From an uncultured Candidatus Saccharibacteria bacterium (GTDB lineage: Bacteria; Patescibacteriota; Minisyncoccia; Phycocordibacterales; UBA2100), in NCBI GenBank assembly GCA_964424265.1, contig CAYRHX010000001.1, forward strand, positions 128,498 through 192,497: 64,000 nt of DNA, given 5' to 3'. Each line of letters opens with the position of its first letter. The stretch's first letter is position 1. The position numbers were made by a program, and so were the translations under genes. This document shows positions 45,457-62,988 of the stretch, one piece after another. The notes under the pieces are model-generated. The model did not search any database and was not told where the DNA came from. It saw only the letters and a program-made list of their open reading frames with translations.

Positions 45457-45565
45457 AAAATAGCGAATCCGCGCAACAGCGCGGATGACGGACCCGCACC
45501 ATTGGTCCCGATATGGGGACGTAGCGTGGAAAGCAGTATACGCAGAACCTTCAGAAACGCAATAG

Positions 45566-46030
45566 CTATGTCTCCGAACCACCGAGTGATCGTCGGGAAC
45601 GCTTATGCAAAACTTCTGCAAGGATCCAGACCATACCCATAGAAGTCGATCCCAGGATAAACGGAATGATGCTTCCACTGTCGTCAAATCCAAATGCTGC
45701 GTTAAATTGACAAAAGAAGGATCCCGGTTCGCATCCCCTCCCATGCGCTCCTGCACCGTTTTGCACAGGAGAGCCAGCGTCCGCAGGCTTCCACAAAATG
45801 TCCTCTACCGTAAGACCTCTTTTCTGTGACTCTTGTGCGAGCATGTCGACTATTGAATCAAGACTTGCTTGCGATAATCCTGACGTACGAGGATCAGTCA
45901 AAAGCGAGCTTCGGATGGCCGCTCGAATGTCGGAACCATCTTCTGCGTGTGCGATGAGCGGCATTGCACTCATCAGCACGATCACGGCCACGGCGCATGG
46001 CGCCCACCCAAAAATAGCAGATGTATTCAT
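45566..46030 (-). CDS. hypothetical secreted protein
   Basis: Signal peptide MNTSAIFGWAPCAVAVIVLMSAMPLIAHA. 154 aa. Downstream of the giant protein gene. Confidence 0.4.
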   Translation of the reverse strand: MNTSAIFGWAPCAVAVIVLMSAMPLIAHAEDGSDIRAAIRSSLLTDPRTSGLSQASLDSIVDMLAQESQKRGLTVEDILWKPADAGSPVQNGAGAHGRGCEPGSFFCQFNAAFGFDDSGSIIPFILGSTSMGMVWILAEVLHKRSRRSLGGSET

Positions 46031-46058
46031 ACAAAAAATTGTATCACGCTCTTTAGCC

Positions 46059-49000
46059 TTACCGCTCTTGAAACGCGGGAAGTATGTTGACAGTGGATGA
46101 TCGGCTCACACTTGACGGCGAGGAACCAGGAAGCCCCTCACATGTGATAGTAAAGACGGTCTGAGAACTCAAAACCGTTCCCCCGCTGCCCTCAGTCCCA
46201 CTCCACGAATCACCATTCGCACTGACGACGGTACACAATTGAGTATTAGCGGTTTGCCAACGAACCTGCACTTGATTCCCTGCTCTTATCAACAATGGCG
46301 TGACGAGCCATTCCGTAATGGAAGGAGGTGGGGTGCCGTTACATCCGCCTAAAGTACATCCATTCGTGCACTGATACACCCGACGGCTTCCACTTTGGCA
46401 TTGGTTTATGATGTCGTCGTGGTCCTCTCCTTGATTTACATCTCCACAACGATTGAAGCACCCTTGGGGCGGCGTACACCGCGTCTGATTCAATATCTGA
46501 TCAAAGGACTCCGTCCACCCTTCTGGACAGCGGTCGAAACGACATGATAAAGATCCTCCGGTACCTTCTTGCCGGTAACCAACGGGACATTGACCAAATC
46601 GACACACCCCGTCGGCGTATAACTCATACCCAGCGGAGCACGTGTATTGGCATTTGGGGGTTCCGCAACTGAGGGCAACCGTGCGGGGTGTGTTTGCGGT
46701 AAGACCAGCAGCGTCTCCTGTGCAGATATTTGTGTTTGAGGGAGTAGCGCCTGTGCAAGAATACTGAGAGACACATTCACCCCCTTGCTTAACGTACCCT
46801 GGAGAACAGTAGTACTCACATTTCTTTGATGGAGTGCAGCTTGAAACGAGAACACGGCCGGAGTCTGATGTGACATTTTCATCGCCCGGGCATGAGGCAG
46901 CATGTTCAGGGATATAACCTCTGCACTCTGGGGGGGTACAGTACCCTGCCTTTACATATTTACAATCCGGCGTATCCGAGTCTACGGCAAAATATGTGTT
47001 AGTGGAGACTTCACAATACCCTCTCTTGAGGAGACATTCTGGTATCGGATTACACTGCCCGCCGTACACGTAAGCACATGCGACTGGATCGACGTCGTTT
47101 TGGACACCATTGACCCCATCCGCATTCGCGTCGCAGTAGGGTTGTTTGGTGCAGGATTGAGTATCCCTCACCACCACATTCACCCAATCGGAGCAGTTGT
47201 TGTTTTCGTTTGTTGATGTTGCGGTGAGTCCTTCACGGACAGAACCAGTATCGGTAGCGGAGCTCTTGTCTGCACATGCTCTCACTGAGGATGTGCCTGT
47301 TGACGTGAAGATGTACGAGCGGGAGATGTCGTCGCTCGATCCTTCCACAAGCGGAGGGAGAGAGTTTGCGACGAGGCCTGTGATGGCGCCTCCGCCGTCT
47401 GGCGCGGTAGCTACTTGGAAGAAGTTGTAGAAGTTCTGACTGCCTGTCGGGGCGCCTCCCTGGTTTACGATGGTGGCTGAGAGTGTGGTTGATGCGTTGC
47501 GGATCGTGGCTGTAGGGCTTGTGTTGATGGCGGTGAGGTCGGGGTAGATGGGATCGCACCTGAGACCCGAGGGATATGGTTGACATGCGTCATTGATTTC
47601 TTGTTGGATGTAGGTTTCTGCGTCGCAGTAGGGTTGCCTGTTGCAAACACACGCTCCATTCTGAAGTACTTGGCCTGCGGGGCACACAATGACGCACTCG
47701 CCATTTTGAAGTGTCTGGCCAGCTGGGCAAATCAAAACGCATGTGCCATTTTGACGTGTTTGACCAGCGGGACACGCAACGTCTGTCACCACCACATTCA
47801 CCCACAGGGAGCAGTTGTTGTTTTCTCCTAGATCTTCGTCGGGTCCTTCGTAAACGGAACCTGTGTTGGTAGCAGAACTCTTGTCTGCGCATGCTCTCAC
47901 AGAGTATGTGCCGGCTGATGTGAAAGTGTATGGACTGGAGATGCTGCCACTGGCTCCCGACGTGAGAGCGGATATGAATACAGGAGAAAGGCCTGTGATG
48001 GCGCCTCCGCCATCTGCCGCGGTAGCTACTTGGAAGAAGTTGTAGAAACCGCTCCCCGTTGGAGCGCCCCCTCTGTTTGTAATATCGGCAGAGAGTGTGG
48101 TCGAGGCGTTGCGGGTTGTCGTTGCGGGGCTTGTGTTGAGGGCGGTGAGGTCGGGGTAGTGAGGGTTGCATTGTCCCCCATACACATATGCGCAAACGGT
48201 TGCATCGACTTCGTAGAAGGTATCGGTGTTTGCATCACAGTAGGCAGTTTTGCTACATGGTATCGGATTACACTGCCCCCCGTACACGTACGTGCACGAT
48301 TCCACGTCGACGTCATTCTGAGTGTCTGTTGCTGCGTCGCAGTAGGGTTGCCTGTTGCAAACACACGCTCCATTCTGAAGTACTTGGCCTGCGGGGCACA
48401 CAATGACGCACTCGCCATTTTGGCGTGTTTGACCAGCGGGACACGCAACGTCTGTCACCACCACATTCACCCACAGGGAGCAGTTGTTGTTTTCTCCTAG
48501 ATCTTCGTCGGGTCCTTCGTAAACGGAACCTGTGTTGGTAGCAGAACTCTTGTCTGCGCATGCTCTCACAGAGTATGTGCCTGTTGACGTGAAGATGTAC
48601 GAGCGGGAGATGTCGTCGCTCGATCCTTCCACAAGCGGAGGGAGAGAGTTTGCGACGAGGCCTGTGATGGCGCCTCCGCCGTCTGGCGCGGTAGCTACTT
48701 GGAAGAAGTTGTAGAAGTTCTGACTGCCTGTCGGGGCGCCTCCCTGGTTTACGATGGTGGCTGAGAGTGTGGTTGATGCGTTGCGGATCGTGGCTGTAGG
48801 GCTTGTGTTGATGGCGGTGAGGTCGGGGTAGAGGTCGTTGCACAACCTTCCGGAAGGCCGGAGTGTACATGCACTTGTGTTCCCTACGACCTCTTGATAT
48901 TGACCGTTTTCGCAGAACCCTACGAGAGTACACGTGTCTGGGACACACGATCCATTCTGAAGTACTTGGCCTGCGGGGCAGCCGTCGTCAACACACGATC

Positions 49001-52000
49001 CATTCTGAAGCACTTGGCCTGCGAGGCACACAATGACGCACTCGCCATTTTGAAGTGTCTGGCCAGCTGGGCAAATCAAAACGCATGTGCCATTTTGACG
49101 TGTTTGACCAGCGGGACACGCAACGTCTGTCACCACCACATTCACCCACAGGGAGCAGTTGTTGTTTTCTCCTAGATCTTCGTCGGGTCCTTCGTAAACG
49201 GAACCTGTGTTGGTAGCGGAGCTCTTGTCTGCACATGCTCTCACTGAGGATGTGCCTGTTGACGTGAAGATGTATGAACTGGAGATGCTGCCACTGGCTC
49301 CCGACGCGAGAGCGGATATGAATACGGGAGAAAGGCCTGTGATAGAGCCTCCGCCGTCTGCCGCGGTAGCTACTTGGAAGAAGTTTTGGAATCCACTTCC
49401 TGTCGAATGGGCTCCACGATTTGTGATGACGGCAGAGAGTGTGGTTGATGCGTTGCGGGTTGTCGTTGCGGGGCTTGTGTTGAGGGCGGTGAGGTCGGGG
49501 TAGAGGTCGTCGATGGTCGCAACCTCCACATTCACCCACGCGGAACAATTATTGCCTTCGTAGGGTCCTTCGTTGTTTGATCCAGGATCATTCGCATAAC
49601 TTTTGTCCGCACACACTCGCGTGGAGTATATACCGGCAGATGTGAATGTGTGCGGAAGATAAATGTCGCGACTTGTTCCTGGCGCAAGCGGAAGAGAAGT
49701 GGCAGACGCGAGGTTGGTAATGGCAATGTCGCCTCCGCCATTTGCACCTAAAGCTACCTGAAATAAATTCTTGAAGCTGTTGCCTGCCAGGGCGCCTCCT
49801 TGATTTGTAATGGTGGCTGAGAGTGTGACAGAAACACCGACCGTTGCAGATGTTGGACTCGTATTAAAGGCTACGAGATCTGGATATATGGAGACACATC
49901 CTTCACCATCCTTGGTAAATCCAGAAGAGCACGTGTACTCACATTTGGATGCTTCGCTAGGCACACTACAGTCGTAGACAAGCTTTCTGGGCGTGTCTGA
50001 GGCGAGACCATCGGCGTCTCCTCCGCAGAGATTCGCGTTGGAGGGGGCGGAGCCGGTGCAGGAGTAGGTGATAGCGACACACGCGCCATCTTGAAGTACG
50101 TATCCGGAAGAACATGTGTATTCACATTTTGTTGACGGACTGCAACTGGATACAAGAGTGCGAGGGGTACTCGTAGCGAGCTCAACGTCGTCGCCTGTGC
50201 AAATATTTGAATTCGAGGGAGTTGCTCCGGTGCAAGCGCAACTCCCAACTGTGGAGGTAGCCCCCGCTGCTATATATGTAATCACGACAAGACCAGAACC
50301 GCCGGAAGTGCCGTTGCTATAGCCAGCTGTCGCCTGAGCTCCCATACCAACACCGGGAACATACGAGGAGTCCGTCATGTTCGCGGCATTGCGGCCACTC
50401 CCCGCGATGAGAGTTGCTCCGACCCCATATCCAGAACCACCGCCGCCACTTCCCACCTGTGCGCCACTGTCGACTCCATTTCCGCCACCACCCCCAAAAT
50501 ATCCTCCTCCGCCGCCACCACCACCATAACTCCTCGCACCACCGCCCGAGCCAGAACCTCCCTGAAGCGCGCTCCCAGATGACCAGCCTCCTCCACCTGC
50601 AGATTGCGTGCCACCAGTACCGCTCAAAGATGCTGCGCCACCACTCGCTCCACCACCGGGACCTGCATTACTTGCAGATCCTTGATCTCCTACTCCTCCC
50701 GATCCGCCTCCCCCTCCTGCAATGATGAGCGCACTTGCCTGAGAAACAGCACCTCGAAATACTCCCGAGTAGCCTCCACCCCCACCACCGCTTGTACACG
50801 GGACCCGGAAATTACATGCCACAGCTCCGCCTACTCCGCCTCCCGGTGAACCGCCCGCCCCCGGCGCAAAATCTCCGAGTTGTGAGGTTTTACCACCTTT
50901 TCCAGAATCACCCACGGCAATTGTAAGGGTCTCACCTGCTGTCACGCTGAGAGTGCGCTGTGCAAATCCACCTCCACCCCCAATGCCGCCCGTTACACCA
51001 CTCGCGCCCCCTCCACCTCCTCCTGCTCCCCATGCTTTCACGGTAACATTTGTCACGCCTGTGGGAACGACAAATGAGTGCACACCTATCGTAGAAAAAG
51101 TCCTAGTGTCGGAAGAGGTCGTCGATACTGACTGAGAACAGGAAGGTCCGGGGGGAGGAGTGACGACACACACACCGCCTTCATTGGTATATCCAGCAGC
51201 GCATGTGTATCTAATGTCAACGAGGCCAGTGCCTCCAGCAGTTCCGCTTGCCTGAGCTCCCATACCAACACCAGGAACATACGAAGAGTCCGTCATGTTC
51301 GCGGCATTGCGGCCACTCCCCGCAACGAGAGTTGCTCCGACCCCATATCCAGAACCGCCGCCGCCGCTTCCTACCTGATAACTAAAATCTACTCCATTCC
51401 CGCCTCCACCGCCAAAGTATCCACCACCACCACCGCCACCGCCATAATTTGTTCCTCTTGTGCCAGCTCCCCCCGATAGAACGCTCCCGGAGTACGAACC
51501 TCCAGCCAATTGTGTCCCGCCAAAGCCATGTTGCTCTACAAACGAGCTGTTTACACCAGATGAACCTCCTCCTGCTCCGCCATTGCTTGCATAAGCATAA
51601 TTTCCGGTACCCCCTGAGCCGCCGCCGCCGCCAGCAATCAATAGTGCGCCGGCTTGTGATACGGTGCCACGAAAGACCCCTGAATATCCTCCCCCTCCTC
51701 CTCCGGTCGAACACAAGATCGCATTTTGACAACCTGCGTAAGAAGCTCCTGGAGCGCCTCCTGGAGCGCCTCCTGCTCCCGCAATGTTTGAAAGAGTGCT
51801 ACCGCCTTTACCGGAATCGCCGACGGCAATGGTGAGCGTCTCGCCCGATGTCACGCTAAAAGTGCGCTGCGCAAATCCACCGCCGCCGCCATATCCACTT
51901 GCGGCGCCATTACCCCCTCCTGATCCTCCACCAGCGCCCCACGCTTTCACGGTAATTTCTGTGACCCCAACAGGAACAACGAAGGTGCGCGTGCCTGGTG

Positions 52001-52142
52001 TTGAGAAAATACTTGCGGCAAACGCGGAGGAAGGCGCTAATATCGCCGCTATAAAAACAAGCGCAACACCTACCAAAAAGAAATTCTCTGAAATGTGATC
52101 GACGACCGCTGAGATGTAACCATGCCTCACACGCTTGATCAT
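46059..52142 (-). CDS. giant (2027-aa) cell-surface protein: N-terminal TM/signal, two glycine-rich modules, tandem CARDB-like and Cys-rich (CPAGQxxQNGxCV) repeat units, C-terminal Ig-like domain
   Basis: One uninterrupted ORF. Repeated protein blocks YPDLTALNTSPATTTRNASTTLSA...SVRACADKSSATNTGSVYEGPDEDLGENNNCSLWVNVVVTDVACPAGQTRQNG. Gly-rich GGGSGGG...GFAQRT(F/L)SVT(S/A)GETLTIAVGDSGKGG occurs twice. Confidence 0.8.
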   Translation of the reverse strand: MIKRVRHGYISAVVDHISENFFLVGVALVFIAAILAPSSAFAASIFSTPGTRTFVVPVGVTEITVKAWGAGGGSGGGNGAASGYGGGGGFAQRTFSVTSGETLTIAVGDSGKGGSTLSNIAGAGGAPGGAPGASYAGCQNAILCSTGGGGGGYSGVFRGTVSQAGALLIAGGGGGSGGTGNYAYASNGGAGGGSSGVNSSFVEQHGFGGTQLAGGSYSGSVLSGGAGTRGTNYGGGGGGGGYFGGGGGNGVDFSYQVGSGGGGSGYGVGATLVAGSGRNAANMTDSSYVPGVGMGAQASGTAGGTGLVDIRYTCAAGYTNEGGVCVVTPPPGPSCSQSVSTTSSDTRTFSTIGVHSFVVPTGVTNVTVKAWGAGGGGGGASGVTGGIGGGGGFAQRTLSVTAGETLTIAVGDSGKGGKTSQLGDFAPGAGGSPGGGVGGAVACNFRVPCTSGGGGGGYSGVFRGAVSQASALIIAGGGGGSGGVGDQGSASNAGPGGGASGGAASLSGTGGTQSAGGGGWSSGSALQGGSGSGGGARSYGGGGGGGGYFGGGGGNGVDSGAQVGSGGGGSGYGVGATLIAGSGRNAANMTDSSYVPGVGMGAQATAGYSNGTSGGSGLVVITYIAAGATSTVGSCACTGATPSNSNICTGDDVELATSTPRTLVSSCSPSTKCEYTCSSGYVLQDGACVAITYSCTGSAPSNANLCGGDADGLASDTPRKLVYDCSVPSEASKCEYTCSSGFTKDGEGCVSIYPDLVAFNTSPTSATVGVSVTLSATITNQGGALAGNSFKNLFQVALGANGGGDIAITNLASATSLPLAPGTSRDIYLPHTFTSAGIYSTRVCADKSYANDPGSNNEGPYEGNNCSAWVNVEVATIDDLYPDLTALNTSPATTTRNASTTLSAVITNRGAHSTGSGFQNFFQVATAADGGGSITGLSPVFISALASGASGSISSSYIFTSTGTSSVRACADKSSATNTGSVYEGPDEDLGENNNCSLWVNVVVTDVACPAGQTRQNGTCVLICPAGQTLQNGECVIVCLAGQVLQNGSCVDDGCPAGQVLQNGSCVPDTCTLVGFCENGQYQEVVGNTSACTLRPSGRLCNDLYPDLTAINTSPTATIRNASTTLSATIVNQGGAPTGSQNFYNFFQVATAPDGGGAITGLVANSLPPLVEGSSDDISRSYIFTSTGTYSVRACADKSSATNTGSVYEGPDEDLGENNNCSLWVNVVVTDVACPAGQTRQNGECVIVCPAGQVLQNGACVCNRQPYCDAATDTQNDVDVESCTYVYGGQCNPIPCSKTAYCDANTDTFYEVDATVCAYVYGGQCNPHYPDLTALNTSPATTTRNASTTLSADITNRGGAPTGSGFYNFFQVATAADGGGAITGLSPVFISALTSGASGSISSPYTFTSAGTYSVRACADKSSATNTGSVYEGPDEDLGENNNCSLWVNVVVTDVACPAGQTRQNGTCVLICPAGQTLQNGECVIVCPAGQVLQNGACVCNRQPYCDAETYIQQEINDACQPYPSGLRCDPIYPDLTAINTSPTATIRNASTTLSATIVNQGGAPTGSQNFYNFFQVATAPDGGGAITGLVANSLPPLVEGSSDDISRSYIFTSTGTSSVRACADKSSATDTGSVREGLTATSTNENNNCSDWVNVVVRDTQSCTKQPYCDANADGVNGVQNDVDPVACAYVYGGQCNPIPECLLKRGYCEVSTNTYFAVDSDTPDCKYVKAGYCTPPECRGYIPEHAASCPGDENVTSDSGRVLVSSCTPSKKCEYYCSPGYVKQGGECVSQYSCTGATPSNTNICTGDAAGLTANTPRTVALSCGTPKCQYTCSAGYELYADGVCRFGQCPVGYRQEGTGGSLSCRFDRCPEGWTESFDQILNQTRCTPPQGCFNRCGDVNQGEDHDDIINQCQSGSRRVYQCTNGCTLGGCNGTPPPSITEWLVTPLLIRAGNQVQVRWQTANTQLCTVVSANGDSWSGTEGSGGTVLSSQTVFTITCEGLPGSSPSSVSRSSTVNILPAFQER
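47190..49560. repeat. near-identical tandem DNA repeats (~670-675 bp period, at least 3 copies) inside the giant gene
   Basis: String CACCCACAGGGAGCAGTTGTTGTTTTCTCCTAGATCTTCGTCGGGTCC recurs near 47795, 48470 and 49144. Long stretches are identical between copies. Confidence 0.75.
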
Positions 52143-52152
52143 AATATAGGGT

Positions 52153-53010: not shown

Positions 53011-53070
53011 CTAGCAAATGCGTCTCTTTCCAGCGACATACTGCTCGCTGGAGTCGTAGATATCTGGACT

Positions 53071-54279: not shown

Positions 54280-54336
54280 GATCGTATACTACCACTCTCG
54301 AATCAGAGGACGTGAGTCAGCCTAATGCAATATGCG

Positions 54337-55584
54337 CTAGATCTTGAGACCCTCTGCTGAGAGAAAATCCCGAAATTGCGCATCTTGTTTTGCAATTTCC
54401 AACATATCCTGACGAGCGAGATCCCGTGACCCTCCGGACGTTTTTAGTATTTGAATATAGTCTGTAAATAATCTCCTCATTTCTTGATTATATTGAAATT
54501 TCGTCTTAAAGCCTTCTATGTCCCTCAGAACACGTGAGACGTCATGATTTACAACTTTATCGTTGGCATTAAAGAGAAACGCTGCGTAATTCACATCCAA
54601 GATTACCTTAGAAAATAAGAGGATGTCCTCGTCGGAAAGGATGTTGGCTGCAATAGATGCGTAAGCCTGATCGAAAGATTGTTTTGCTTGATCTTCCGTA
54701 ACGATATCAAATCGAGCAAGTATCCCGACCCCTAATGCATAGTCGACGAGCGGTCTTACGTCATTTTCGGATTTTGAGTTCGTAAGTTTAGTTGTCGAAG
54801 CGGTGGGAAATATTCGCATGAGCTCCAAGCTCTCATCGACAATTTTCGACTTTAGGCCAAGGTCTTCGACTACCCCCTGGCGATAGAGTAACTGGGCGAG
54901 GCTAAGAATCTTTATGCTGACCATGTAATTATCGCGCGGCAAGTCATCACGACTAAAAAGATGGTCATTTATATAGAGCGTCGATGCAATGCGCTTATCT
55001 GTGGAGTACTTCTGGATAAGGGTTTTCAATTGCGGTTCATTCGCGAAACGAGAGTCTAAGAATGAATTCGGGTCAATGTTGTAGATGAAATTGATTACAT
55101 AAACGTAGAATCTTCGCAAATATCTTGGGTTTCTTTTGTCTTTCTGAGCCGCTTCGGCGATACTAAAGATGCCATCGTAAAGTCCATCGTACGCCTCGAC
55201 CATCATCGCCTTTCTTTTTATCGGATCACTCGTATTGGTAAACGCAACGGAAGCGAGTTTTTTGTAGTACATGGCTCTTTTAAACAACAATTCAGTCTCG
55301 GTATCAACTCCTGCAGAATTCTTCAGGTCCACCTCCATCTTCGCCAACTCCTCCTCGAGGTACTTATACTTCGTACCCGTCTCCGTCCCTTGAAGATTTC
55401 TGAAAGTATCGCTAGTAGGAATACGACTATTGATGAAATCACTTGTAACGATACTCTGTAAATCATCCAGGGAGACTTCCCGCGTAATACTAGACTGCGA
55501 CACGATGTGATACGCGAATCCCGCCACACCCACAAGGATGGCGATGATCGCAATGTATATTGATATTCTTGGAGAATTATTCAT
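54337..55584 (-). CDS. hypothetical membrane-anchored protein
   Basis: N-terminal TM then a 390-aa helical-looking domain. No recognisable motifs. Confidence 0.5.
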   Translation of the reverse strand: MNNSPRISIYIAIIAILVGVAGFAYHIVSQSSITREVSLDDLQSIVTSDFINSRIPTSDTFRNLQGTETGTKYKYLEEELAKMEVDLKNSAGVDTETELLFKRAMYYKKLASVAFTNTSDPIKRKAMMVEAYDGLYDGIFSIAEAAQKDKRNPRYLRRFYVYVINFIYNIDPNSFLDSRFANEPQLKTLIQKYSTDKRIASTLYINDHLFSRDDLPRDNYMVSIKILSLAQLLYRQGVVEDLGLKSKIVDESLELMRIFPTASTTKLTNSKSENDVRPLVDYALGVGILARFDIVTEDQAKQSFDQAYASIAANILSDEDILLFSKVILDVNYAAFLFNANDKVVNHDVSRVLRDIEGFKTKFQYNQEMRRLFTDYIQILKTSGGSRDLARQDMLEIAKQDAQFRDFLSAEGLKI

Positions 55585-55613
55585 GCGACCACAAATATGA
55601 GCATCGCTCGTGA

Positions 55614-55886
55614 CTACTCAGAACTGTCAGAGCTAGCACCGGCCCCACAGTCACTACTACCAGAGTCAGAGTCGGAGTCGCCACCGGTGCCACCAGAAAC
55701 GTCGCCAGCAGTGCCGCCAGCAGTGCCGCCAGCATCTGCTGAGGCTGTCTGTGTATCAAAGTCGAGTAAAATAGAGTGCTTCCTTGAAGCGTCATCCGTC
55801 TTTATCGAGATGAAAAAACCCACGATGAGCGCTGCCCCCGTTAGGATTCCGAATCGGACCAGCTTGGAGAGTTTGCGAACATTCAT
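55614..55886 (-). CDS. small membrane-anchored peptide with Gly/Ser/Asp-rich acidic tail
   Basis: MNVRKLSKLVRFGILTGAALIVGFFISIK... then GGTAGGTAGDVSGGTGGDSDSDSGSSDCGAGASSDSSE. Sits between the two Cys/His-rich paralogs. Confidence 0.4.
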   Translation of the reverse strand: MNVRKLSKLVRFGILTGAALIVGFFISIKTDDASRKHSILLDFDTQTASADAGGTAGGTAGDVSGGTGGDSDSDSGSSDCGAGASSDSSE

Positions 55887-55890
55887 ACCA

Positions 55891-57126
55891 TTACAGCCAT
55901 GCTACCAAGTGATACCACTTTGACAACTCATCAACTGTAGAGAACCGCAAATCTTTTTCAGATGTAAAGAAAAGGCGACTCCTATCGACAAAGACGAGAT
56001 GCTTGCATTCTCGCGCATAGAGAGGATTGAGCGTATCGCACACATACTTCACAACGGATTGATAATCCTCACTTTTCCGAGCACTGTCCATTGAACCTCC
56101 GATTCTATCTGCCATCACTGCAGTACACATGACACGCTCTTGAGCAGAAGTGATATTAAGGCACATCTCATATATTTCCTTGTAGTGGACCAACCTTACT
56201 GCCCTGATCGCAAAGAGCTTGACACAAGCCATACGATTGAGACCGTCTCCAATTTGCTTGCAGAAACCAATATTCCTCGTGTAATTTTTCCCTTCTTTCG
56301 AATACGACTGAAAGAATGAGGATTGCTCCAAATAACATGCCGGTTGGTATTTTTTCTCCAATGAATCACACAGGACGAAACTCATTTTTTGATTTTCCAC
56401 GCGGACTGCATCCTTAAATTCTTGACCATACTCCATAAAACCGCCCGTGTGACATCCGAATACACGGTCGGGTCTCTGTGAAATCCGATCACAAACGTAC
56501 ACCATGTCTTCAACACTGTAATCGGTCTGGATCATTGCCGCATGCCCTACTCCATGAAAACAGCCTCCGGCGTTAGAAATCTCTTTGTTATTACAAATGG
56601 GACGAAGAACCGTTACGAGATCATCTCTGTCTGCGACATCTTTTGCCATTTCTTCAATCACGCCGTGAAAGAAACCATTTCCGCATGTGACCACATTTTT
56701 GAAATAACCCCCAGACGACATGAACGTATACGCCTTATATGGATCGTCGCCGCTTAGACGAAAGACGGCATGTCCAATACCATGAGAAATATAGTGGCAG
56801 CTCGAGAGCAACTCGGGGCGCTCTTTTTGTAATCGCGCAAGATGCGCGAAGGCCCTTTCACCCCCCTGCTCCATAGCATACGTATCGTAAAAACTACGCA
56901 TACACTCCTCCACCCTACTTCCTCCCGATTTGACTTTCTGACACCGATTGATTTTCTCTAGATCTTCCGCTGTGACCTTTACGTCATCTATGATCTTCTC
57001 CTGATTTTCAATAATCGAATAGTAGCGAGCTATTTCTGCTTTCTTTATGTGCTGAGAGTACTGGAGTGCCGCGAAAGTACCGATTATTACAAAAGCCACA
57101 AAGGCAATTTCTCTTCTACTAAGCAT
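55891..57126 (-). CDS. membrane-anchored Cys/His-rich protein with repeated C..HGxGHA motifs (paralog B)
   Basis: CHYISHGIGHA, CGNGFFHGVIEE, CFHGVGHAA, CHTGGFME. Collinear with paralog A. Confidence 0.6.
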   Translation of the reverse strand: MLSRREIAFVAFVIIGTFAALQYSQHIKKAEIARYYSIIENQEKIIDDVKVTAEDLEKINRCQKVKSGGSRVEECMRSFYDTYAMEQGGERAFAHLARLQKERPELLSSCHYISHGIGHAVFRLSGDDPYKAYTFMSSGGYFKNVVTCGNGFFHGVIEEMAKDVADRDDLVTVLRPICNNKEISNAGGCFHGVGHAAMIQTDYSVEDMVYVCDRISQRPDRVFGCHTGGFMEYGQEFKDAVRVENQKMSFVLCDSLEKKYQPACYLEQSSFFQSYSKEGKNYTRNIGFCKQIGDGLNRMACVKLFAIRAVRLVHYKEIYEMCLNITSAQERVMCTAVMADRIGGSMDSARKSEDYQSVVKYVCDTLNPLYARECKHLVFVDRSRLFFTSEKDLRFSTVDELSKWYHLVAWL

Positions 57127-57167
57127 ACGACTTCCTGCGCAAGAGGATACGTATATAATAACACTGT

Positions 57168-58574
57168 ATGGTGTCCACCCTTAGGGAGAGATATTATCGA
57201 CTGTTTGCAATTCATGAGATCGAAGGGAGTGCGATTTTACAGCTCCTCTTTTATGTCATCAGCCTCTCATTTTTTGTCACGTTTTATGGGTGGGTTGAGA
57301 GAGGCTTGATTAGCATCACAACATTCGAAATCGGGACTCATATTTGTCCGCCATACTTCCCTTCGTGCGGAAATCTTTACTTCTTGGAAGCGCTTCCGTA
57401 CGGCTATAGCCAGAGCGCTTTTTACGTATTCCTTTTTCTCGTTCTCGGCTACGGCGTGTATTCCGCATACCGAAGGGATTGGGTGTCGGCCCATGCGGCA
57501 TTGTTACTGTGTCTCGTCTGGAAGATAATCTGGGCCTTTGTTCTGACGTACGGCGTAACGGGAAATTTCGACTATTATGACATGGCGTTTGCCTTCCTCT
57601 TGCTCTTCGCGCGAGAAAAAGAATACTTCGCGAAAGTCACGTTTGTATTCTTCTATGTACTCGCATCAAGTATAAAAATCGGAGACGGATGGATCTTCGC
57701 AAACTACTTCAACGGACTCTTCACCTCATCACCCATCTTCGGGCCCGCCTACTTACCCGCTTTTACCAACCTGCTCATCGTGATGCAAATGGTCGGCTGC
57801 TGGCTCCTGTTGTCGAAAAACAAGATCGTGCAGCGAAGCGCACTCGTATACTTCCTCCTCTTCCATATCTATTCGGGAATAATCGTCAACTACCGCTATA
57901 TCACTGTTTCCGTACCAACGCTCTTCGTCCTTTTCTCAAATCCGAGCGAATTTCACGTAAAACGAATAAACAGGACCACGCTCTTTGGATACCTTTTTTT
58001 GCTCTTCCTTCTTTGCAGCCAGCTTATTGCAATCCTTACCCCAGGAGATCAGAAAAAGACCTTGGAGGGCAATTACTATGGGCTGTATATGTTTGAGGCA
58101 AATCATCAATGCATTTCAGAAACGGCCATCTATCGCAAAGACGCGGAGCCTGTCGTGACGAAGCGCGAAAATCATGTCGCCAACAATCGCTGCGACCCAT
58201 ATCGATATTGGTTCCCGCTTACAACCCTGTGCGCGCGCGACGCGAGTGTTGAGCGAATAGCGTGGACCTTTGACCATTCTATCAACGGTGGCGCGTACGA
58301 ACGTATCGTAGACGTGGAAGACGCGTGCACGCTCACCTATCGGGCAATCGGCCATAACGAATGGATACAGATAGACCAGCCGAAAATCTTGGATATACCC
58401 GTATACAAAACGGGGTTTGCGAATCCTCTCGACTCGCGAATACAGGTATCTGCCGTGCCCATAAAGAATGAACCCTTACTTGAAGACATTACAACAGCTT
58501 ATTGGGCATTGTGGATCACGTCGCTCTCGTTTGCCTTTGGGGCACTTGCGTACGCGCACGTTAAAAGACAATGA
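57168..58574 (+). CDS. polytopic integral membrane protein (at least 8 TM) with Cys-containing C-terminal extracytoplasmic domain; possibly HTTM/VKGC-like
   Basis: Highly hydrophobic 468-aa product; Trp/Tyr-rich TM helices. The family guess is unverified. Confidence 0.55.
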   Translation: MVSTLRERYYRLFAIHEIEGSAILQLLFYVISLSFFVTFYGWVERGLISITTFEIGTHICPPYFPSCGNLYFLEALPYGYSQSAFYVFLFLVLGYGVYSAYRRDWVSAHAALLLCLVWKIIWAFVLTYGVTGNFDYYDMAFAFLLLFAREKEYFAKVTFVFFYVLASSIKIGDGWIFANYFNGLFTSSPIFGPAYLPAFTNLLIVMQMVGCWLLLSKNKIVQRSALVYFLLFHIYSGIIVNYRYITVSVPTLFVLFSNPSEFHVKRINRTTLFGYLFLLFLLCSQLIAILTPGDQKKTLEGNYYGLYMFEANHQCISETAIYRKDAEPVVTKRENHVANNRCDPYRYWFPLTTLCARDASVERIAWTFDHSINGGAYERIVDVEDACTLTYRAIGHNEWIQIDQPKILDIPVYKTGFANPLDSRIQVSAVPIKNEPLLEDITTAYWALWITSLSFAFGALAYAHVKRQ

Positions 58575-60193
58575 GCACGATCCGAGACGAGCTCAAGACA
58601 CTCATTGAACAGCGAGTGTTCTCCCGCTACAAAGACCTTGGCGAAGAAAAATGGATTTTCGATTTCCGCACCGTGAGCATGACCCGTGAGTTCATGGATC
58701 TGTATTCGCATGCTTTCTTCGAACACTTCAAAGGAGAAAAGGACGTCCAGATATGCGGACTTGAATCTGCGTCTATCCCTCTCGTCACGACACTCGTTTA
58801 TGCGTCGGAAGCGTTTGATGTAAAAGCAAACGGGCTTTTCATACGGAAAGGAAGAAAGAAGCACGATCTCCATAAGATTATTGAGGGTACGCCAAACAAA
58901 CAGCCCGTAATCCTCGTCGACGACATACTGAACACGGGGAAATCTATTGAAAAACAAATTGAAGTTTTAAAGAACGCCGGACTCACGGTCAGCGGCATAT
59001 TCTGCCTCGTGCGATTTCGAGACGAGTCGTTTTATGGTTTTTTGACCAAAGGTGAGATACCACTCACATCACTCTTCGAACTCAACGACTTCAAATCATC
59101 CCTCAACATCGAAAACCTTCAGAGAAAGAAAGAACTTCAGTCGCTCTCCTTCACCTACAAATGGGGATTCACTATTCCCGCCGATCTCGTCAACTATAAG
59201 AACGTCGCCCCGAAATCCGCGCCCGTGATATATCGAGATACGATACTTTTCGGCACGGACTCCGGCATATTCTATTGTTTGGATAAACGCACGGGAGACA
59301 CAATATGGACGTACAAAATCCTGTTTGGTGATCGTGGGAAAATGATCCATTCCTCCCCCGTCGTCCACAAGGACACCGTATACTTCGGCGCATACGACGG
59401 CAATTTCTACTCACTTGATGCGCGCACGGGAAAAAGAAAGTGGGTGTACATGGAGGCAGACTGGATAGGGTCTTCTCCTTGTGTCTCTGCAAAAGATAAT
59501 CTCGTATACGTCGGCCTGGAATTTGGCTTATGGAAAAAGAGGGGGGGCATAGTGGCACTAGACGCGAATACAGGCAAAGAAAAGTGGCGCGACACCCACA
59601 TCGGCCTCACGCACTGCTCACCATATGTCTCTCTAAAAAATAACCAGCTCTACTGCGGATCAAACGACGGGATCCTGCGAATATACAACGCACAAACGGG
59701 CGAGCATCTCAAGAATCACGTAATCGGTGCGCCCATACGACTCTCGTTTTCTGAAAATGATGCCGGCACCAAGATCGTCTTCGGGGCATTCGATAAGCAC
59801 TGCCATGTTGTCGACACGACCACGCTTGAGATCGTGGATAAACTCGAGACGCTCGAAGCAATATATTCCACTCCTCTGTGGATCGGCGAAACTATCATCG
59901 TCAATTCACTCGACAAAAGAGTCTATTCGTACGACGCGGTACATAAGAAACTGAACTGGACCTTTCTGACCAAAGGCAGGATCTTTAGTAATCCCGTATT
60001 AATTAAAGGATCGCTATTTGTAGGCTCAAATGACGGGGCTTTATATAAATTAGATCCAGAGACAGGCAAAGAAATCGGGCACATACAATTCCCCGAAAGA
60101 ATCGTGAACAAGGTGCTGTTCGATGAAGAAACTGGCTACACGTACATCCCTACGTTTGCCAACGAACTCCACTGTCTTTCCATTGTTCCATGA
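58571..60193 (+). CDS. fusion protein: N-terminal type I phosphoribosyltransferase-like domain + C-terminal PQQ-like beta-propeller repeats
   Basis: PRTase motif PVILVDDILNTGKSI. At least five repeats of the PQQ/BamB type (FYCLDKRTGDTIWTY, FYSLDARTGKRKWVY, VALDANTGKEKWRD, LRIYNAQTGEHLKNH, LYKLDPETGKEIGHI). Start overlaps the upstream gene stop (ATGA). Confidence 0.7.
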   Translation: MSTIRDELKTLIEQRVFSRYKDLGEEKWIFDFRTVSMTREFMDLYSHAFFEHFKGEKDVQICGLESASIPLVTTLVYASEAFDVKANGLFIRKGRKKHDLHKIIEGTPNKQPVILVDDILNTGKSIEKQIEVLKNAGLTVSGIFCLVRFRDESFYGFLTKGEIPLTSLFELNDFKSSLNIENLQRKKELQSLSFTYKWGFTIPADLVNYKNVAPKSAPVIYRDTILFGTDSGIFYCLDKRTGDTIWTYKILFGDRGKMIHSSPVVHKDTVYFGAYDGNFYSLDARTGKRKWVYMEADWIGSSPCVSAKDNLVYVGLEFGLWKKRGGIVALDANTGKEKWRDTHIGLTHCSPYVSLKNNQLYCGSNDGILRIYNAQTGEHLKNHVIGAPIRLSFSENDAGTKIVFGAFDKHCHVVDTTTLEIVDKLETLEAIYSTPLWIGETIIVNSLDKRVYSYDAVHKKLNWTFLTKGRIFSNPVLIKGSLFVGSNDGALYKLDPETGKEIGHIQFPERIVNKVLFDEETGYTYIPTFANELHCLSIVP

Positions 60194-60300
60194 GCGATTT
60201 GTGAGGACTGTACTATGATCATGGGGCGGTCCACGCCCGAAAGAGTCGCCCATGTATAGTGAGTAGTGCGCATCCGTCGCCAGATGCGCACTATCGAGGG

Positions 60301-60606
60301 TCAGAATGGGATCCCCATCCTAACCCTCCTTTCCCCCTCGTCGCACCACTCGCGTGGATTCTTTTTATCCTGGTTTGCCCGCAGGCAACCAGAATAGGAC
60401 CAGTTGGCATGGCCCTGTAGTTCCGGCCGCGCGGCCGGAACTACAATACCCTTCCCGGGGGGTCGTATAGTCCTCGCCTCCGGCGAGTCCCAATGGGGCC
60501 TCGCCGAAGGCGCCACCTGACCCCCGGTGGCGGGGGGGGTCTGGCCATAGGCCAGACCCGTCATCATGACGAGGGCGAAGAGCCCCGCCATAATTCTCTT
60601 TTTCAT
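60301..60606 (-). CDS. hypothetical signal-peptide ORF in an atypically GC-rich segment
   Basis: MKKRIMAGLFALVMMTGLAYGQ then Pro/Ala/Gly/Arg-rich sequence. Overlapped by a second-frame ORF. May not be coding. Confidence 0.3.
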   Translation of the reverse strand: MKKRIMAGLFALVMMTGLAYGQTPPATGGQVAPSARPHWDSPEARTIRPPGKGIVVPAARPELQGHANWSYSGCLRANQDKKNPREWCDEGERRVRMGIPF

Positions 60607-60840
60607 GGGTTTCTCCTTCTCCTCGTCCTTCGACCGCGGATGTGCGGCCTATCGTAAACGAGGCATCCGAACACAAATCGTATTATGTGCGCATGCCTCG
60701 CCCATAGGATCAGGCGGAGAAGTGTACCGTGGGATAATATGTCCAACCTGTCAAGGTGCTCTTTCGCCACTGTAGCCCCCCTCCACGCAATAGTCAAGCG
60801 CACCCTGAGCACATTCCCGAGAGCCGGAAGGCTTCGGGGT

Positions 60841-61221
60841 TTACATCATCTTCACGTCGATTGAGACGCCAGATGGAAGGTCGATATTGGTGAGAGCTTC
60901 GATCACCTTTGGCTCTGGATTCAAAATATCGATCATGCGCTTATGGATACGCATTTCAAATTGCTCGCGAGAATCTTTGTCGATGAAAGCAGCGCGGTTG
61001 ACCGTGTATTTCTTGATATCAATGGGGAGCGGGACGGGGCCGATGACTTCTGCGTTGTGCCGTGCAGCGACATCGATGATTTGCTTCACCGCACCATCAA
61101 GGACACCGTGCTCATAGGCACGCACGCGAATACGCAAGCGGCTTGGGCCCGCAGCTTTTTTGACAGCACGTGGAGCACGAGCCTTCACAGGAGCCTTGGT
61201 GACCTTTGATTCCGCTGTCAT
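60841..61221 (-). CDS. rpsJ: 30S ribosomal protein S10 (with basic N-terminal extension)
   Basis: LRIRVRAYEHGVLDGAVKQIIDVAARHNAEVIGPVPLP...FEMRIHKRMIDILNPEPKVIEALTNIDLPSGVSIDVK collinear with S10. Confidence 0.85.
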   Translation of the reverse strand: MTAESKVTKAPVKARAPRAVKKAAGPSRLRIRVRAYEHGVLDGAVKQIIDVAARHNAEVIGPVPLPIDIKKYTVNRAAFIDKDSREQFEMRIHKRMIDILNPEPKVIEALTNIDLPSGVSIDVKMM

Positions 61222-62966: not shown

Positions 62967-62988
62967 TGGCTCGAACCTTTGTTCGAAA

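Follow-up and report, generated by a model that had tools for sequence, protein, structure and literature searches.

The rpsJ–rplC interval of a Kaiserbacteria-type patescibacterium: envelope genes in the gap and a conserved leader upstream of rplC

When the 64-kb stretch of DNA analysed here (the window) was examined, rpsJ and rplC, both on the minus strand, were separated by 15,384 bp, which bears out the distance of about 15.4 kb given in the initial annotation. There, the intervening DNA was regarded as an accessory island that splits the S10 operon. In our reading the interval is probably no recent island: the tuf-rpsJ-rplC cluster of Kaiserbacteria-type Paceibacteria seems to have been broken here for a long time, as a trait of the lineage, with an operon that starts at rplC and a permissive site ahead of it. 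The earlier placement in the Patescibacteria was correct, the lineage being Kaiserbacteria.

The large r-protein operon of this clade probably starts at rplC. On the model of the E. coli S10 leader, which L4 controls, this unit would be autonomous and probably subject to feedback by an r-protein, and rpsJ would be left solitary, detached from tuf as well. If the operon does start at rplC, the gap is a permissive insertion site: since expression of rplC and the genes downstream of it would be independent of rpsJ, intervening DNA could be gained, lost or rearranged without harm to ribosome synthesis. The site appears to have been filled repeatedly with clade-specific cell-envelope genes.

Genes between tuf and rplC

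The rpsJ gene (60841-61221, minus strand) encodes an S10 protein of 126 aa (Pfam PF00338 Ribosomal_S10, E 5e-30, profile positions 1-98 of 98), identical on six independent contigs. The rplC gene (44842-45456, minus strand; L3, 204 aa, Pfam Ribosomal_L3) starts with an ATG at 45456, supported by alignment with relatives, and opens the r-protein string L3-L4-L23-L2-S19-L22-S3-L16 and onwards. Between the two genes there are 10 ORFs, each also called by public gene callers, and not 12 as originally counted; the gene inventory was otherwise essentially right. Profile searches identified no translation gene among the 10, as had been stated. Seven of the proteins carry an N-terminal hydrophobic anchor or signal in a Kyte-Doolittle scan, one is polytopic by hydropathy, and two genes are on the plus strand, which agrees with the earlier description (both strands, mostly secreted or membrane products).

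The gene next to rpsJ encodes the small protein p101 (60301-60606, minus strand, from the ORF listing; 96 or 101 aa in public assemblies). Its N-terminus is below the Kyte-Doolittle threshold and signal-peptide-like by eye, and it had no matches in Pfam, NCBIfam, PADLOC or PHROGs. Two plus-strand genes follow, a PRTase-PQQ propeller fusion of 540 aa (58571-60193; Pfam Pribosyltran, PQQ_2 and Beta-prop_ACSF4) and mem468, a polytopic membrane protein of 468 aa (57168-58574); the start of the fusion gene overlaps the stop of mem468 by 4 nt. The Cys/His-rich CH411 (55891-57126) is the first of seven co-directional minus-strand genes running toward rplC. The others are the small protein p90 (55614-55886; translation, and gene call in public assemblies), the N-terminally anchored p415 (54337-55584), CH402 (53071-54279; a second Cys/His-rich paralogue, 42% identical to CH411), a TPR protein of 285 aa with an N-terminal membrane anchor by hydropathy (52153-53010; Pfam TPR_2, E 9e-17, and related TPR families), a giant surface protein of 2027 aa (46059-52142; Pfam CARDB, E 8e-24, in five stretches, and ALK_LTK_GRD) and p154 (45566-46030), which is small and has a signal peptide and, at its C-terminus, a transmembrane segment.

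As a translation gene rpsJ is solitary, being detached from tuf too. The two are 1.8 kb apart in this genome, with an OCD/mu-crystallin gene (61746-62732, minus strand; Pfam OCD_Mu_crystall, E 2e-94) and a YCII-like gene (61302-61649, minus strand; YCII, E 5.5e-4, below its cut-off) between them, and a terminator scan placed a terminator-like hairpin after tuf (62759-62781). Within the close clade, tuf and S10 are 114 bp to 7.5 kb apart, and at least 465 bp apart in every genome except L036; outside it the distance is ≤281 bp in most genomes.

The cyanobacterial and plastid str operon (rps12-rps7-fusA-tufA-rps10) is similar to the archaeal arrangement of uS10. In Archaea, uS10 is always apart from uL3-uL4-uL23-uL2, and the str/L30e cluster ends with EF-1alpha and then S10 (PMC10833476). 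As in Archaea, the uS10/uL3 junction appears here as a natural breakpoint, with the large operon running from uL3 and uS10 expressed separately. Unlike in Archaea, the host is a bacterium of the Patescibacteria, the 1.8 kb and a terminator-like hairpin part rpsJ from tuf also, and variable envelope genes fill the 15 kb between rpsJ and rplC, which keep the same orientation. Gene insertions between operons of the r-protein cluster relax synteny (PMC8046335). In those events, as proposed here, a few genes inserted at an operon boundary relax the selection on synteny, rearrangement or full disconnection follows, and no long-distance horizontal transfer is evident. They lie between E. coli-type operons (str|S10), whereas the present break is at rpsJ|rplC, inside the S10 operon as defined in E. 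coli, is far larger, many species having more than 10 kb, and recurs within one clade across many lineages.

Promoter-like element and leader upstream of rplC

A promoter-like element of rplC, TTGCGT-16 nt-TATACT, is located at 45535-45562 (minus strand). The pattern TTGCRT-N16-18-TAKAST has this single match in the window, compared with 0.09 expected by chance; the element failed a promoter scan whose consensus is that of E. coli. In 27 of 28 loci the leader described below has an equivalent element ahead of it, and in 19 of these the distance from the end of the element to the leader model is 3-5 nt. This conservation suggests that rplC has its own promoter, and the leader RNA would begin at about the transcription start.

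The structured 5' leader itself (45494-45531, minus strand; covariance model R1, 28.3 bits, E 7.6e-4) consists of helix P1 (CGCUA/UGGUG), an asymmetric internal loop (C/CAA) and helix P2 (GUCCC/GGGAC), and in many relatives its motif can be recognised by eye ahead of rplC. The covariation score was 0.298 versus 0.121 in shuffles (0 of 500 reached 0.298) and ≤0.093 when the pairing partners were slid; the covariation was then confirmed on 28 distinct sequences. In P2, five of six pairs had changes on both sides, including U-A to A-U; the U-G wobble of P1 is replaced in some sequences by a C/A juxtaposition, which was scored as unpaired in the counts. When model R1 was run on 1.43 Mb of related loci, 35 matches were obtained, all 30-190 nt upstream of rplC on the rplC strand, and none away from these sites. 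In independent metagenome contigs, 23 motif matches were found 38-220 nt upstream of L3; between the end of rpsJ and the leader there were 45-7,821 nt, or else up to 12 kb of upstream sequence had no rpsJ.

The leader is followed either directly by the start codon, as in one subclade, or by a terminator-like hairpin and its U-tract. The hairpin in the window, a candidate attenuator (45457-45486, minus strand; terminator scan and RNAfold centroid structure), has an 8-bp stem with six G-C pairs, a UGUU loop and a U-rich tract up to the rplC start codon. By eye, a hairpin with a T-run was seen at the equivalent place in about 20-23 of the 28 leader loci, and the distant relative L100 has the same terminator-promoter-leader architecture ahead of rplC. 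In the one subclade, the same motif is joined to an outer helix (GUUG/CAAC to GGUU/AACC) abutting the start codon. An outer helix in such a position, as an alternative platform, is typical of RNA-level regulation.

The S10 operon leader of E. coli is regulated by L4 through transcription attenuation and translational repression (PMC3616713). In both cases a terminator hairpin lies between the structured 5' leader and the first gene of the L4-encoding operon, just ahead of that gene; the present leader also has, in a subclade, a second expression platform next to the start codon. It differs in preceding rplC and not rpsJ and in its unrelated sequence and structure, with no match to any Rfam family; the E. 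coli leader is confined to Gammaproteobacteria.

A possible but doubtful alternative is that the element is not an r-protein-responsive leader and represents a strong promoter whose initially transcribed region is conserved, an RNase processing site or the site of a DNA-binding regulator. The -35/-10-like element equals the RNA helices in conservation, P1 varies little, and a comparison with E. coli rRNA found no resemblance that might identify the binding protein. However, the compensatory changes in P2, the persistence of this helix through apical insertions of variable length, the different platform at the start codon in the subclade, and the hairpin and U-run that follow in about 20 of 28 loci argue for a leader that acts as RNA.

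Whether the r-protein genes are still co-transcribed with rpsJ had been called undecidable from sequence, and this view stands only in part. The two opposite-strand genes in between, together with the conserved promoter-like element, leader and hairpin of rplC, give a strong hint of separate transcription. No terminator separates p154 from the rplC promoter, so that read-through from the operon within the interval into rplC is possible.

The interval in related genomes

An S10 identity of at least 77% defined the close relatives, 18 species-level genomes, of which 15 were informative. In none of the 15 did rpsJ adjoin rplC. Eleven had no L3 within 7.6-10 kb of rpsJ, three had a gap of 3.6-6.4 kb, and one had a gap of 0.66 kb with a p154 homologue as its only content. 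As rplC is not within 10 kb in most of these genomes, a translocation of rpsJ is indistinguishable there from an insertion. Families of the interval (PRTase-PQQ, the 468-aa membrane protein, CH proteins and TPR) also occur downstream of rpsJ in L017, L018, L024, L028, L034 and L036. In L100, whose S10 is 63% and L3 60% identical, rpsJ is followed by orthologues of CH411, p90, p415 and CH402, by PQQ, membrane protein, YcaO, dehydrogenase and TPR genes, and then by rplC, so that the same gene families span 13.7 kb; orthologues in the rpsJ-to-rplC interval of L100/L101 share 43-59% identity. Thus, from the lack of adjacency in close relatives and the shared families in L100, the break is judged to be old and lineage-typical, with a content that has been repeatedly reshuffled. 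The initial annotation had named the same gene content in relatives as evidence against an island, and this is largely what was observed.

In a tree of S10, L3, L4 and L2, all leader-bearing genomes fell into one clade. Within it, rpsJ-rplC gaps vary between 152 and 6,415 bp, even where sister taxa are compared, in addition to the 15,384 bp here; outside it they are ≤734 bp and mostly <220 bp. The leader arose once, in one clade, and its link with large gaps is therefore a single evolutionary correlation and not independent replication. As a separate observation, small inserts (up to 734 bp) occur outside the leader clade as well.

We consider it unlikely that this species or its immediate ancestors had an intact rpsJ-rplC junction until a mobile or foreign segment of 15 kb was recently acquired there. 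A shift in GC or codon usage, proposed as a check, was found in one respect: GC falls to 0.445-0.486 at 52-60 kb, against 0.49-0.56 in most other 1-kb bins. However, the dip arises mostly from codon positions 1 and 2, and GC3 of the interval genes (0.46-0.58; lowest in CH411, p415 and CH402, 0.46-0.50) is within or just below the range of the other window genes (0.47-0.63). The flanking direct repeats that had been suggested were not found between 45457-45565 and 60607-60840, nor was an integrase or transposase (Pfam and NCBIfam profile searches), a tRNA at either edge of the interval or a phage hallmark gene in it (searches including PHROGs).

Recent acquisition would also agree with the variable content. 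The interval differs in content and order even from that of the nearest relative L102, with 94% identical S10, so the label "accessory" is partly apt. The CH cassette occurs at other sites, namely upstream of tuf (L036), beside ATP synthase genes (L097) and near BipA and RecG (L098, L104), which indicates that the module is a unit of its own that gets relocated. In L100 the cassette is 58% identical, which is high relative to the r-proteins and leaves room for lateral cassette exchange between lineages. Against a recent arrival, the break is found in 15 of 15 informative close relatives, the same-family homologues there, at 35-48% identity, point to long residence, and the promoter and leader of rplC would be older than the large gaps. 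With no signature of mobility, near-background GC3 and a break shared by relatives, the claim of an island inserted into an intact operon is not supported.

The envelope module and its position relative to rpsJ

The cargo of the interval is a Patescibacteria envelope module together with the 2027-aa CARDB protein and p154. The conserved module consists of CH411, p90, p415, CH402 and TPR plus the divergent pair of mem468 and the PRTase-propeller fusion. The N-terminal domain of the fusion is PyrE-like (TIGR00336 pyrE, 62 bits, below the cut-off of 106.8) and is followed by a PQQ/BamB-like beta-propeller; sequence matches in the PDB were to propeller proteins and to OPRT 2yzk. A hydropathy scan detected no hydrophobic segment, and the protein is probably cytoplasmic. 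The fold of mem468 is like that of vitamin-K-dependent gamma-glutamyl carboxylase (HTTM-like), with a Cys-containing beta-rich domain between the helix bundle and the final C-terminal helix. At the sequence level neither the Pfam HTTM model nor any PDB chain matched it. Identity to gamma-glutamyl carboxylase/HTTM proteins, its closest known counterparts, is only 15%, and its partners are unusual (the PRTase-propeller fusion, CH proteins and, in relatives, YcaO).

CH411, N-terminally anchored and all-alpha, and its paralogue CH402 represent a new fold; CH402 orthologues in L036, L097 and L100 are 58-66% identical. In the same three genomes p415, which had no family matches in Pfam or NCBIfam, keeps its cassette position, always between the two CH genes. 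The p90 protein (orthologues 67% identical in L036 and 57% in L100) has an N-terminal transmembrane helix and a Gly/Ser/Thr/Asp-rich tail with one Cys, and relatives have comparable small genes adjoining YcaO; their products have tails such as DGCDGCDGCDGCC and GGCSGGCSGA. In the case of the giant protein, a signal or anchor is accompanied by two glycine-rich domains, Cys-rich modules, five CARDB domains, long internal repeats (repeat families D1-D7) and 96 Cys residues. Where p154 is found among relatives it adjoins rplC or rpsJ: homologues are directly upstream of rplC in L020, L033 and L035 and directly after rpsJ in L032, and two copies are in the gap of L019.

The module most likely matures or handles, at the membrane, a small membrane-anchored Gly/Ser/Asp/Cys-rich peptide. 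In relatives it adds YcaO and a nitroreductase-type dehydrogenase beside small genes with Cys/Ser/Gly-rich tails, as in YcaO-dehydrogenase (TOMM / linear azole-containing peptide) RiPP clusters. Unlike in those clusters, the small peptides carry an N-terminal transmembrane helix instead of a soluble leader, and both enzymes are absent from the window copy, which weakens the peptide-maturation reading for this genome. No RiPP class is known to combine YcaO, dehydrogenase and small peptides with an HTTM-like protein, a PQQ-like propeller and CH proteins.

It is very unlikely that the gap is more than permissive and that the module is kept by rpsJ (and tuf) for co-regulation or for an action on translation, such as YcaO-type r-protein modification. 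Homologous modules are indeed beside rpsJ, on either side, in the six relatives with shared downstream families and in L100 and L102, and E. coli YcaO is linked to RimO-dependent modification of S12. However, the module is far from rpsJ in L097, L098 and L104, varies in orientation and order with respect to rpsJ, encodes mostly proteins with a membrane anchor or signal sequence, and lacks YcaO in the window copy.

An assembly error at either junction had been raised as a concern. Both the rpsJ junction (tuf-OCD-YCII-S10-p101 through TPR to the N-terminus of the giant protein) and the rplC junction (C-terminus of the giant protein-p154-L3-L4 and onwards) recurred at 99.3-100% identity in independent ENA and Logan assemblies of several samples, each in at least five. 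The one part that no independent contig spans is 50557-50989, within a glycine-rich domain that is duplicated in the giant gene, and a mis-join there would leave rpsJ and rplC still non-adjacent. That the contig is chimeric via the giant-gene repeats, with rpsJ and rplC not 15 kb apart on one molecule, is very unlikely: every independent short-read contig breaks or collapses inside the giant gene (CARDB repeats are collapsed in L001 and L002), but the ORF is in frame and continuous over 6,084 nt, contigs from either side end at two copies of one internal duplication, as repeat-induced breaks would, at least 9.8 kb of non-ribosomal genes follow rpsJ and at least 5.1 kb of non-ribosomal sequence precedes rplC on independent contigs, even were the contig chimeric, and the 13.7-kb interval of like kind in L100 is independently contiguous.

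The interval between rpsJ and rplC

The S10-spc-alpha cluster is the most conserved prokaryotic gene string and the basis of the syntenic 16-ribosomal-protein marker sets with which uncultured lineages are placed. When the window was analyzed with an ORF map and family scans, the E. coli-type adjacency of rpsJ and then rplC was absent. The rpsJ gene (S10; 60841-61221, minus strand; full-length Pfam match, E 5e-30) and the rplC gene (L3; 44842-45456, minus strand), which is followed by the genes for L4, L23, L2, S19, L22, S3 and L16, are separated by a gap of 15,384 bp. The gap contains ten ORFs, all ten of which were also predicted by public gene callers. Those on the minus strand encode p101, CH411, p90, p415, CH402, a TPR protein, a 2027-aa CARDB protein and p154. 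The two opposite-strand genes encode a 468-aa polytopic membrane protein (mem468) and a 540-aa PRTase-PQQ-propeller fusion, the start of which is overlapped by the stop of the former. None of the ten ORFs is a translation gene. A hydropathy scan found an N-terminal hydrophobic anchor or signal in seven of the proteins, and p101 was signal-peptide-like by eye. The initial annotation had described this anatomy, with rpsJ and rplC apart on the minus strand, in near-exact agreement with the map and the scans. Its description of the contents as mostly secreted or membrane proteins, encoded on both strands and without a translation gene, also stands, although only ten of its 12 genes could be supported.

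An L3 start at GTG 45756 (304 aa; 300 aa in one public assembly) was considered and rejected in favour of ATG 45456, because the extension runs across leader and promoter and into p154, and because the alignment of relatives begins at ATG 45456.

The rpsJ gene is cut off from tuf as well, by ornithine cyclodeaminase/mu-crystallin (OCD) and YCII-like genes (61302-62988, minus strand), and a terminator-like hairpin lies 3' of tuf at 62759-62781. YCII-like genes recur 5' of rpsJ in four related loci (L022, L028, L035 and L102). In L102, the closest relative found, a RelB/YafQ toxin-antitoxin pair and a DUF924 gene (13087-13779) lie between tuf and rpsJ, adjoining the mem468 orthologue. The 234-nt spacer 3' of rpsJ (60607-60840, minus strand) has an unusually stable predicted fold (-98.6 kcal/mol, z = -4.0). 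It opens with a hairpin right after the stop codon, without a U-tract, and includes a promoter-like TTGACT-17-TACAGT ahead of p101.

Exact-protein look-up yielded ENA and Logan contigs assembled independently and coming from several samples. They reproduced both the rpsJ-side junction (tuf-OCD-YCII-S10-p101-...-TPR-N-terminus of the giant CARDB protein; 99.8-100 % identity) and the rplC-side junction (giant C-terminus-p154-L3-L4...; 99.3-100 % identity), which speaks against an assembly error at either junction. Every independent contig stops or collapses within the giant gene, in which the repeats formed by CARDB and by glycine-rich modules are long and nearly identical, and 50557-50989 is the sole stretch that no independent contig covers. 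A mis-join in this stretch is unlikely because the giant ORF is continuous over 6,084 nt, and it would leave rpsJ and rplC non-adjacent anyway. We conclude that the split is real and not an artefact. In two independent assemblies, L001 and L002, the giant gene is shorter in its CARDB repeat region (about 1.6 kb and 0.9 kb missing, respectively), either from strain-level copy-number variation or from assembly collapse.

Gap size and content among relatives

Species-representative genomes were scanned with S10, which placed the window in Candidatus Kaiserbacteria/Paceibacteria, and the window proteins were mapped onto the resulting 80 loci. The close set comprised the 18 genomes in which S10 identity reached 77 % or more, and 15 of these were informative. 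The canonical rpsJ-rplC arrangement was found in none of the 15. In 11 of them no L3 was present within 7.6-10 kb downstream of rpsJ, three had gaps of 3.6-6.4 kb, and one (L033) had a gap of 662 bp containing a p154 homologue alone. Several close relatives carry homologues of the PRTase-propeller, membrane, CH and TPR proteins 3' of rpsJ (24-48 % identity). In more distant Paceibacteria the order tuf-rpsJ-rplC is usually tight, with uS10 directly 3' of tuf (tuf-S10 distance 25-200 bp), and about a third of them still have gaps of 0.7-6 kb.

In the case of the distant loci L100/L101 (S10 63 % and L3 60 % identical to the window), the gap is 13.7 kb and both of its ends are on one contig. The order there is fusA, tuf, rpsJ, orthologues of CH411-p90-p415-CH402 (43-59 % identical), PQQ propeller, membrane protein, a small ORF, a 412-aa unannotated protein, YcaO, a nitroreductase-type protein, TPR protein and rplC. 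In L102 (S10 94 % identical) the mem468 orthologue is on the tuf side of rpsJ and a YcaO-containing module is on the rplC side. Other sites of the CH cassette are 5' of tuf in L036, next to ATP synthase genes in L097, and in the neighbourhood of BipA and RecG in L098 and L104. These gaps and cassette contexts indicate that the break is old and clade-wide, and that the cargo consists of recurring but mobile, lineage-specific modules. Synteny thus largely places the same gene content in relatives as an ancestral state, the outcome which the initial annotation had named as contrary to its own reading, that is, an accessory island inserted in an otherwise intact operon.

Signatures of such an insertion were also sought directly. 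No integrase, recombinase, transposase or phage hallmark gene was found among the ten island proteins using Pfam, NCBIfam, PADLOC and PHROGs, and no defence-system gene using PADLOC. The only PADLOC/PHROGs matches of the island proteins were a weak PRTase similarity, a weak TPR similarity and a glycine-rich-domain similarity, the last to phage families of unknown or tail-fibre-assembly function. The initial annotation had pointed to possible flanking direct repeats; when 45457-45565 was compared with 60607-60840, no direct or inverted repeat joined them above chance-level matches of 14-20 nt. There is no tRNA or tmRNA at the island edges, the nearest being more than 30 kb away. In composition, the stretch at 52-60 kb is lower in GC (0.445-0.486), a dip due chiefly to the first two codon positions, and the GC3 values of the island genes (0.46-0.58) and of the other window genes (0.47-0.63) overlap. 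The site was uninterrupted in 0/15 informative close relatives, and in several it was interrupted by the same gene families with varying exact content. With no mobility signature and with the break present in all 15, a recent insertion is unlikely. The word accessory is apt for the variable content, but not for a recent insertion. We conclude that the rpsJ-rplC interval is a remodelled break of ancestral origin, situated at what is probably an operon boundary, and not a recent island insertion.

The str operon of cyanobacteria and plastids includes rps10. Archaeal genomes always place uS10 away from uL3-uL4-uL23 and after EF-1alpha in the str/L30e cluster (PMC10833476), so that the rpsJ-rplC split itself is not unprecedented. 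The window resembles the archaeal/cyanobacterial type in that uS10 is apart from uL3-uL4-uL23-uL2. It differs in that uS10 is not directly 3' of tuf, as OCD, a YCII-like gene and a terminator-like hairpin intervene. Insertions at the operon boundaries of this cluster, with subsequent loss of synteny, have been documented in Gammaproteobacteria and Bacilli (PMC8046335). Control by L4 through attenuation at the E. coli S10 leader is phylogenetically narrow, and few such r-protein leaders are known outside the model phyla, those of E. coli being narrowly distributed (PMC3616713). Compared with these archaeal, operon-boundary and E. coli-leader cases, the window represents a bacterial variant with its breakpoint at rpsJ-rplC and with unusually large and variable gaps. 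A distinct candidate leader is attached to rplC. Our literature search on an rpsJ/rplC split or an rplC leader in Patescibacteria/Kaiserbacteria found nothing specific.

In Kaiserbacteria-type genomes, rpsJ is routinely 4 to >10 kb from rplC and will therefore often be found on a different contig or be excluded by a "syntenic block" filter. Missing rpsJ in this way matters for binning and phylogenomics.

A candidate leader RNA upstream of rplC

Three elements are arranged in tandem directly 5' of the rplC start codon (45457-45562, minus strand). The first is a promoter-like element (TTGCGT-16 nt-TATACT; 45535-45562, minus strand), the second a leader of two helices, P1 and P2, with an asymmetric internal loop (45494-45531, minus strand), and the third a terminator-like hairpin on the same strand (8-bp GC-rich stem, then a U-tract) that ends at the rplC ATG. 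The 96-nt region holding the leader has a fold z of -2.8. The number of sites in a scan with the E. coli promoter consensus did not exceed that in shuffles, and the rplC element was not among them; its -35-like hexamer, TTGCRT, agrees with TTGACA at only 3/6 positions. The pattern TTGCRT-N16-18-TAKAST has one match in the 64 kb, at rplC (0.09 expected by chance), and because of this single occurrence it is not the general promoter consensus of this genome.

The motif ...CGCUACGUCCC-loop-GGGACCAAUGG... is recognisable 5' of rplC in many relatives, irrespective of the distance to rpsJ. A seed alignment of 18 sequences was made with the structure assigned by hand, and 80 % of its cells are paired. 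The covariation score in this alignment of sequences related to one another was 0.298, compared with 0.121 in shuffles (0/500 reached the observed score) and at most 0.093 with slid partners. Both-sided changes occur in 5/6 pairs of P2, including U-A to A-U. In P1, a U-G wobble is replaced by a C/A juxtaposition in some sequences, which was scored as unpaired in the counts. The pairing and covariation counts hold on 28 distinct hit sequences.

When R1, a covariance model built from the leader alignment, was applied to 1.26 Mb and a further 0.17 Mb, 30 and 5 matches were obtained, respectively. All 35 matches in the 1.43 Mb lie 30-190 nt 5' of rplC on the same strand, with none elsewhere. Beyond the window, the leader was found in loci L019, L020, L033, L035, L038, L043, L044, L046, L047, L049-L051, L062, L064, L065, L067, L068, L071, L078, L079, L082, L084, L085, L091-L093, L095 and L100. 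Of 28 loci, 27 have a TTGCAT-like/TAnnnT element ahead of the leader, mostly ending 3-5 nt before it, and about 20 have a hairpin with a T-run after the leader. Terminator, promoter and leader precede rplC in identical order in L100. One subclade is without the terminator hairpin. In its members the motif sits within a further, outer helix (GUUG/CAAC -> GGUU/AACC) that directly adjoins the start codon, by prediction from the sequences a second expression platform. A loose regular expression for the leader also matched within the S10 coding sequence of four genomes, which was judged a coincidence.

No family in Rfam 15 corresponds to the leader: a gathering-score scan of the window gave only tmRNA and two tRNAs, and in a permissive scan (45380-45640, E up to 10) only the terminator stem scored, against a 20-nt piece of Leu_leader, which is trivial. 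A tmRNA (14686-15075, plus strand; tag ANKTARGILSPIQAKDLGLVFA) and a tRNA-Ile with anticodon TAT (UAU) (9630-9703, minus strand) are both distant from the island. As a check for rRNA mimicry, R1 was run unfiltered on the E. coli rrn operon (16S and 23S, in place of the host's own rRNA) and reached a maximum of 7 bits, so that no mimicry was detected there.

A collection of 241 million metagenome contig records was also scanned with the exact pattern GCTAYGTCC-N3-33-GGACCAATGG. Downstream sequence was sufficient for 70 matches, and 23 of these had L3 38-220 nt downstream. On these 23 contigs, the distance from the end of rpsJ to the leader is 45-7,821 nt, or else no rpsJ occurs in upstream sequence of as much as 12 kb. 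The other 47 had no L3 in their downstream sequence; the 16 of them that were inspected sit in unrelated, mostly coding, GC-rich sequence and look like chance matches. By estimate, an 18-base pattern with a variable gap is expected to give many chance matches in a collection of this size. R1 scores of 19-30 bits did not separate true from chance contig matches because the pattern pre-selects the conserved bases. The pattern scan confirms the association with rplC and is not a clean specificity test.

At the sequence level, the leader thus passes for a conserved, covarying structure in the 5' UTR of an r-protein operon with an expression platform. We consider it a candidate for an RNA that regulates the main r-protein operon in cis, with putative r-protein feedback, and a transcription-unit boundary at rplC is probable.

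An approximate neighbour-joining tree of S10+L3+L4+L2 from 47 genomes and the window placed all leader-bearing genomes in one Paceibacteria clade. Two members of this clade, L037 and L054, have no R1 match, and related motifs are visible in them by eye. Inside the leader clade the gap varies from 152 to 6,415 bp even among sister taxa, and is 15,384 bp in the window. Outside it the gap is at most 734 bp and mostly below 220 bp, an association of leader and large gap which is only suggestive and not statistically independent because of the single evolutionary origin. The simplest reading of the pattern is a single acquisition followed by remodelling. The rplC gene would have gained its own promoter and a regulatory leader once; the rpsJ-rplC spacer would thereafter have been irrelevant to r-protein expression, and would have been expanded and remodelled again and again.

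We give slightly less than an even chance to the full proposal, in which the leader would be an undescribed class of r-protein autoregulatory leaders in one large Paceibacteria clade, with two alternative platforms (intrinsic terminator or start-codon occlusion). Through its origin, rplC would have become the actual start of the S10-spc operon. The rpsJ-rplC junction would have been turned into a recurrent hot spot for gain, loss and shuffling of envelope and peptide-maturation modules, including an uncharacterised system of HTTM-like, PQQ-like propeller, CH and YcaO proteins. The case offers a testable example of how an operon-boundary change, here a promoter and leader of rplC's own, can open a gene-flux hot spot in a rigid cluster. 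Its main value lies in the hot-spot behaviour and in two uncharacterised features indicated for Patescibacteria, the candidate cis-regulatory rplC leader RNA and a conserved envelope module. This module is built on a gamma-carboxylase-like membrane protein and on Cys/His-rich proteins without structural relatives.

Proteins encoded in the interval

With low confidence, the cargo can be described as a membrane-associated peptide-maturation and surface module. The membrane-domain fold of mem468 fits the HTTM/vitamin-K-dependent carboxylase family. A search for the Pfam HTTM/VKG_Carbox families gave no Pfam match at E up to 0.01, and a profile of 44 homologues had no match among PDB sequences at E up to 1. 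The PRTase-PQQ fusion consists of a PyrE-like type-I PRTase domain (below the equivalog cut-off) and a PQQ/BamB-like propeller, and is probably cytoplasmic as it contains no hydrophobic segment.

CH402 (53071-54279, minus strand) and CH411 (55891-57126, minus strand) belong to a family of 47 sequences with no Pfam domain, and the few members with a stated source organism are from Patescibacteria. Sixteen Cys residues are invariant in the family, which also shows the motifs CHYxxHGIGH, CGNGxxHG and CxHGxGH. The structure model is all-alpha and confident (pLDDT 93), with no structural relative in the PDB, and the CH proteins may be extracytoplasmic and metal-binding or disulfide-rich.

The p90 protein (55614-55886, minus strand) has an N-terminal transmembrane helix and a Gly/Ser/Thr/Asp-rich tail with a single Cys. 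Its counterparts were found in L100 (8439-8696 and 15054-15317), L104 (7431-7682) and L102 (1340-1627), and p90 and these proteins share a conserved [S/H]AD motif and a Gly/Ser/Asp/Cys-rich tail, e.g. DGCDGCDGCDGCC. In relatives, p90-type genes adjoin those for YcaO and a nitroreductase-family dehydrogenase, and the peptides have CG or CS repeats. The p90-type proteins are possible membrane-anchored RiPP precursors. The homologous modules in L100, L102 and L104 contain both YcaO and nitroreductase, and tblastn with the relatives' proteins gave no match to either in the 64-kb window. The window module does not qualify as a TOMM/LAP cluster because it contains no YcaO and no dehydrogenase.

The giant protein (46059-52142, minus strand) has two N-terminal glycine-rich domains, Cys-rich modules and five CARDB domains. 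CARDB scored 84.3 bits (cut-off 22.7) over 5 stretches, and residues 13-48 form an N-terminal hydrophobic segment; with CARDB above the Pfam threshold and a signal or anchor, it was classed as a CARDB-domain cell-surface protein. Its two N-terminal glycine-rich domains resemble the glycine-rich domain of ALK/LTK.
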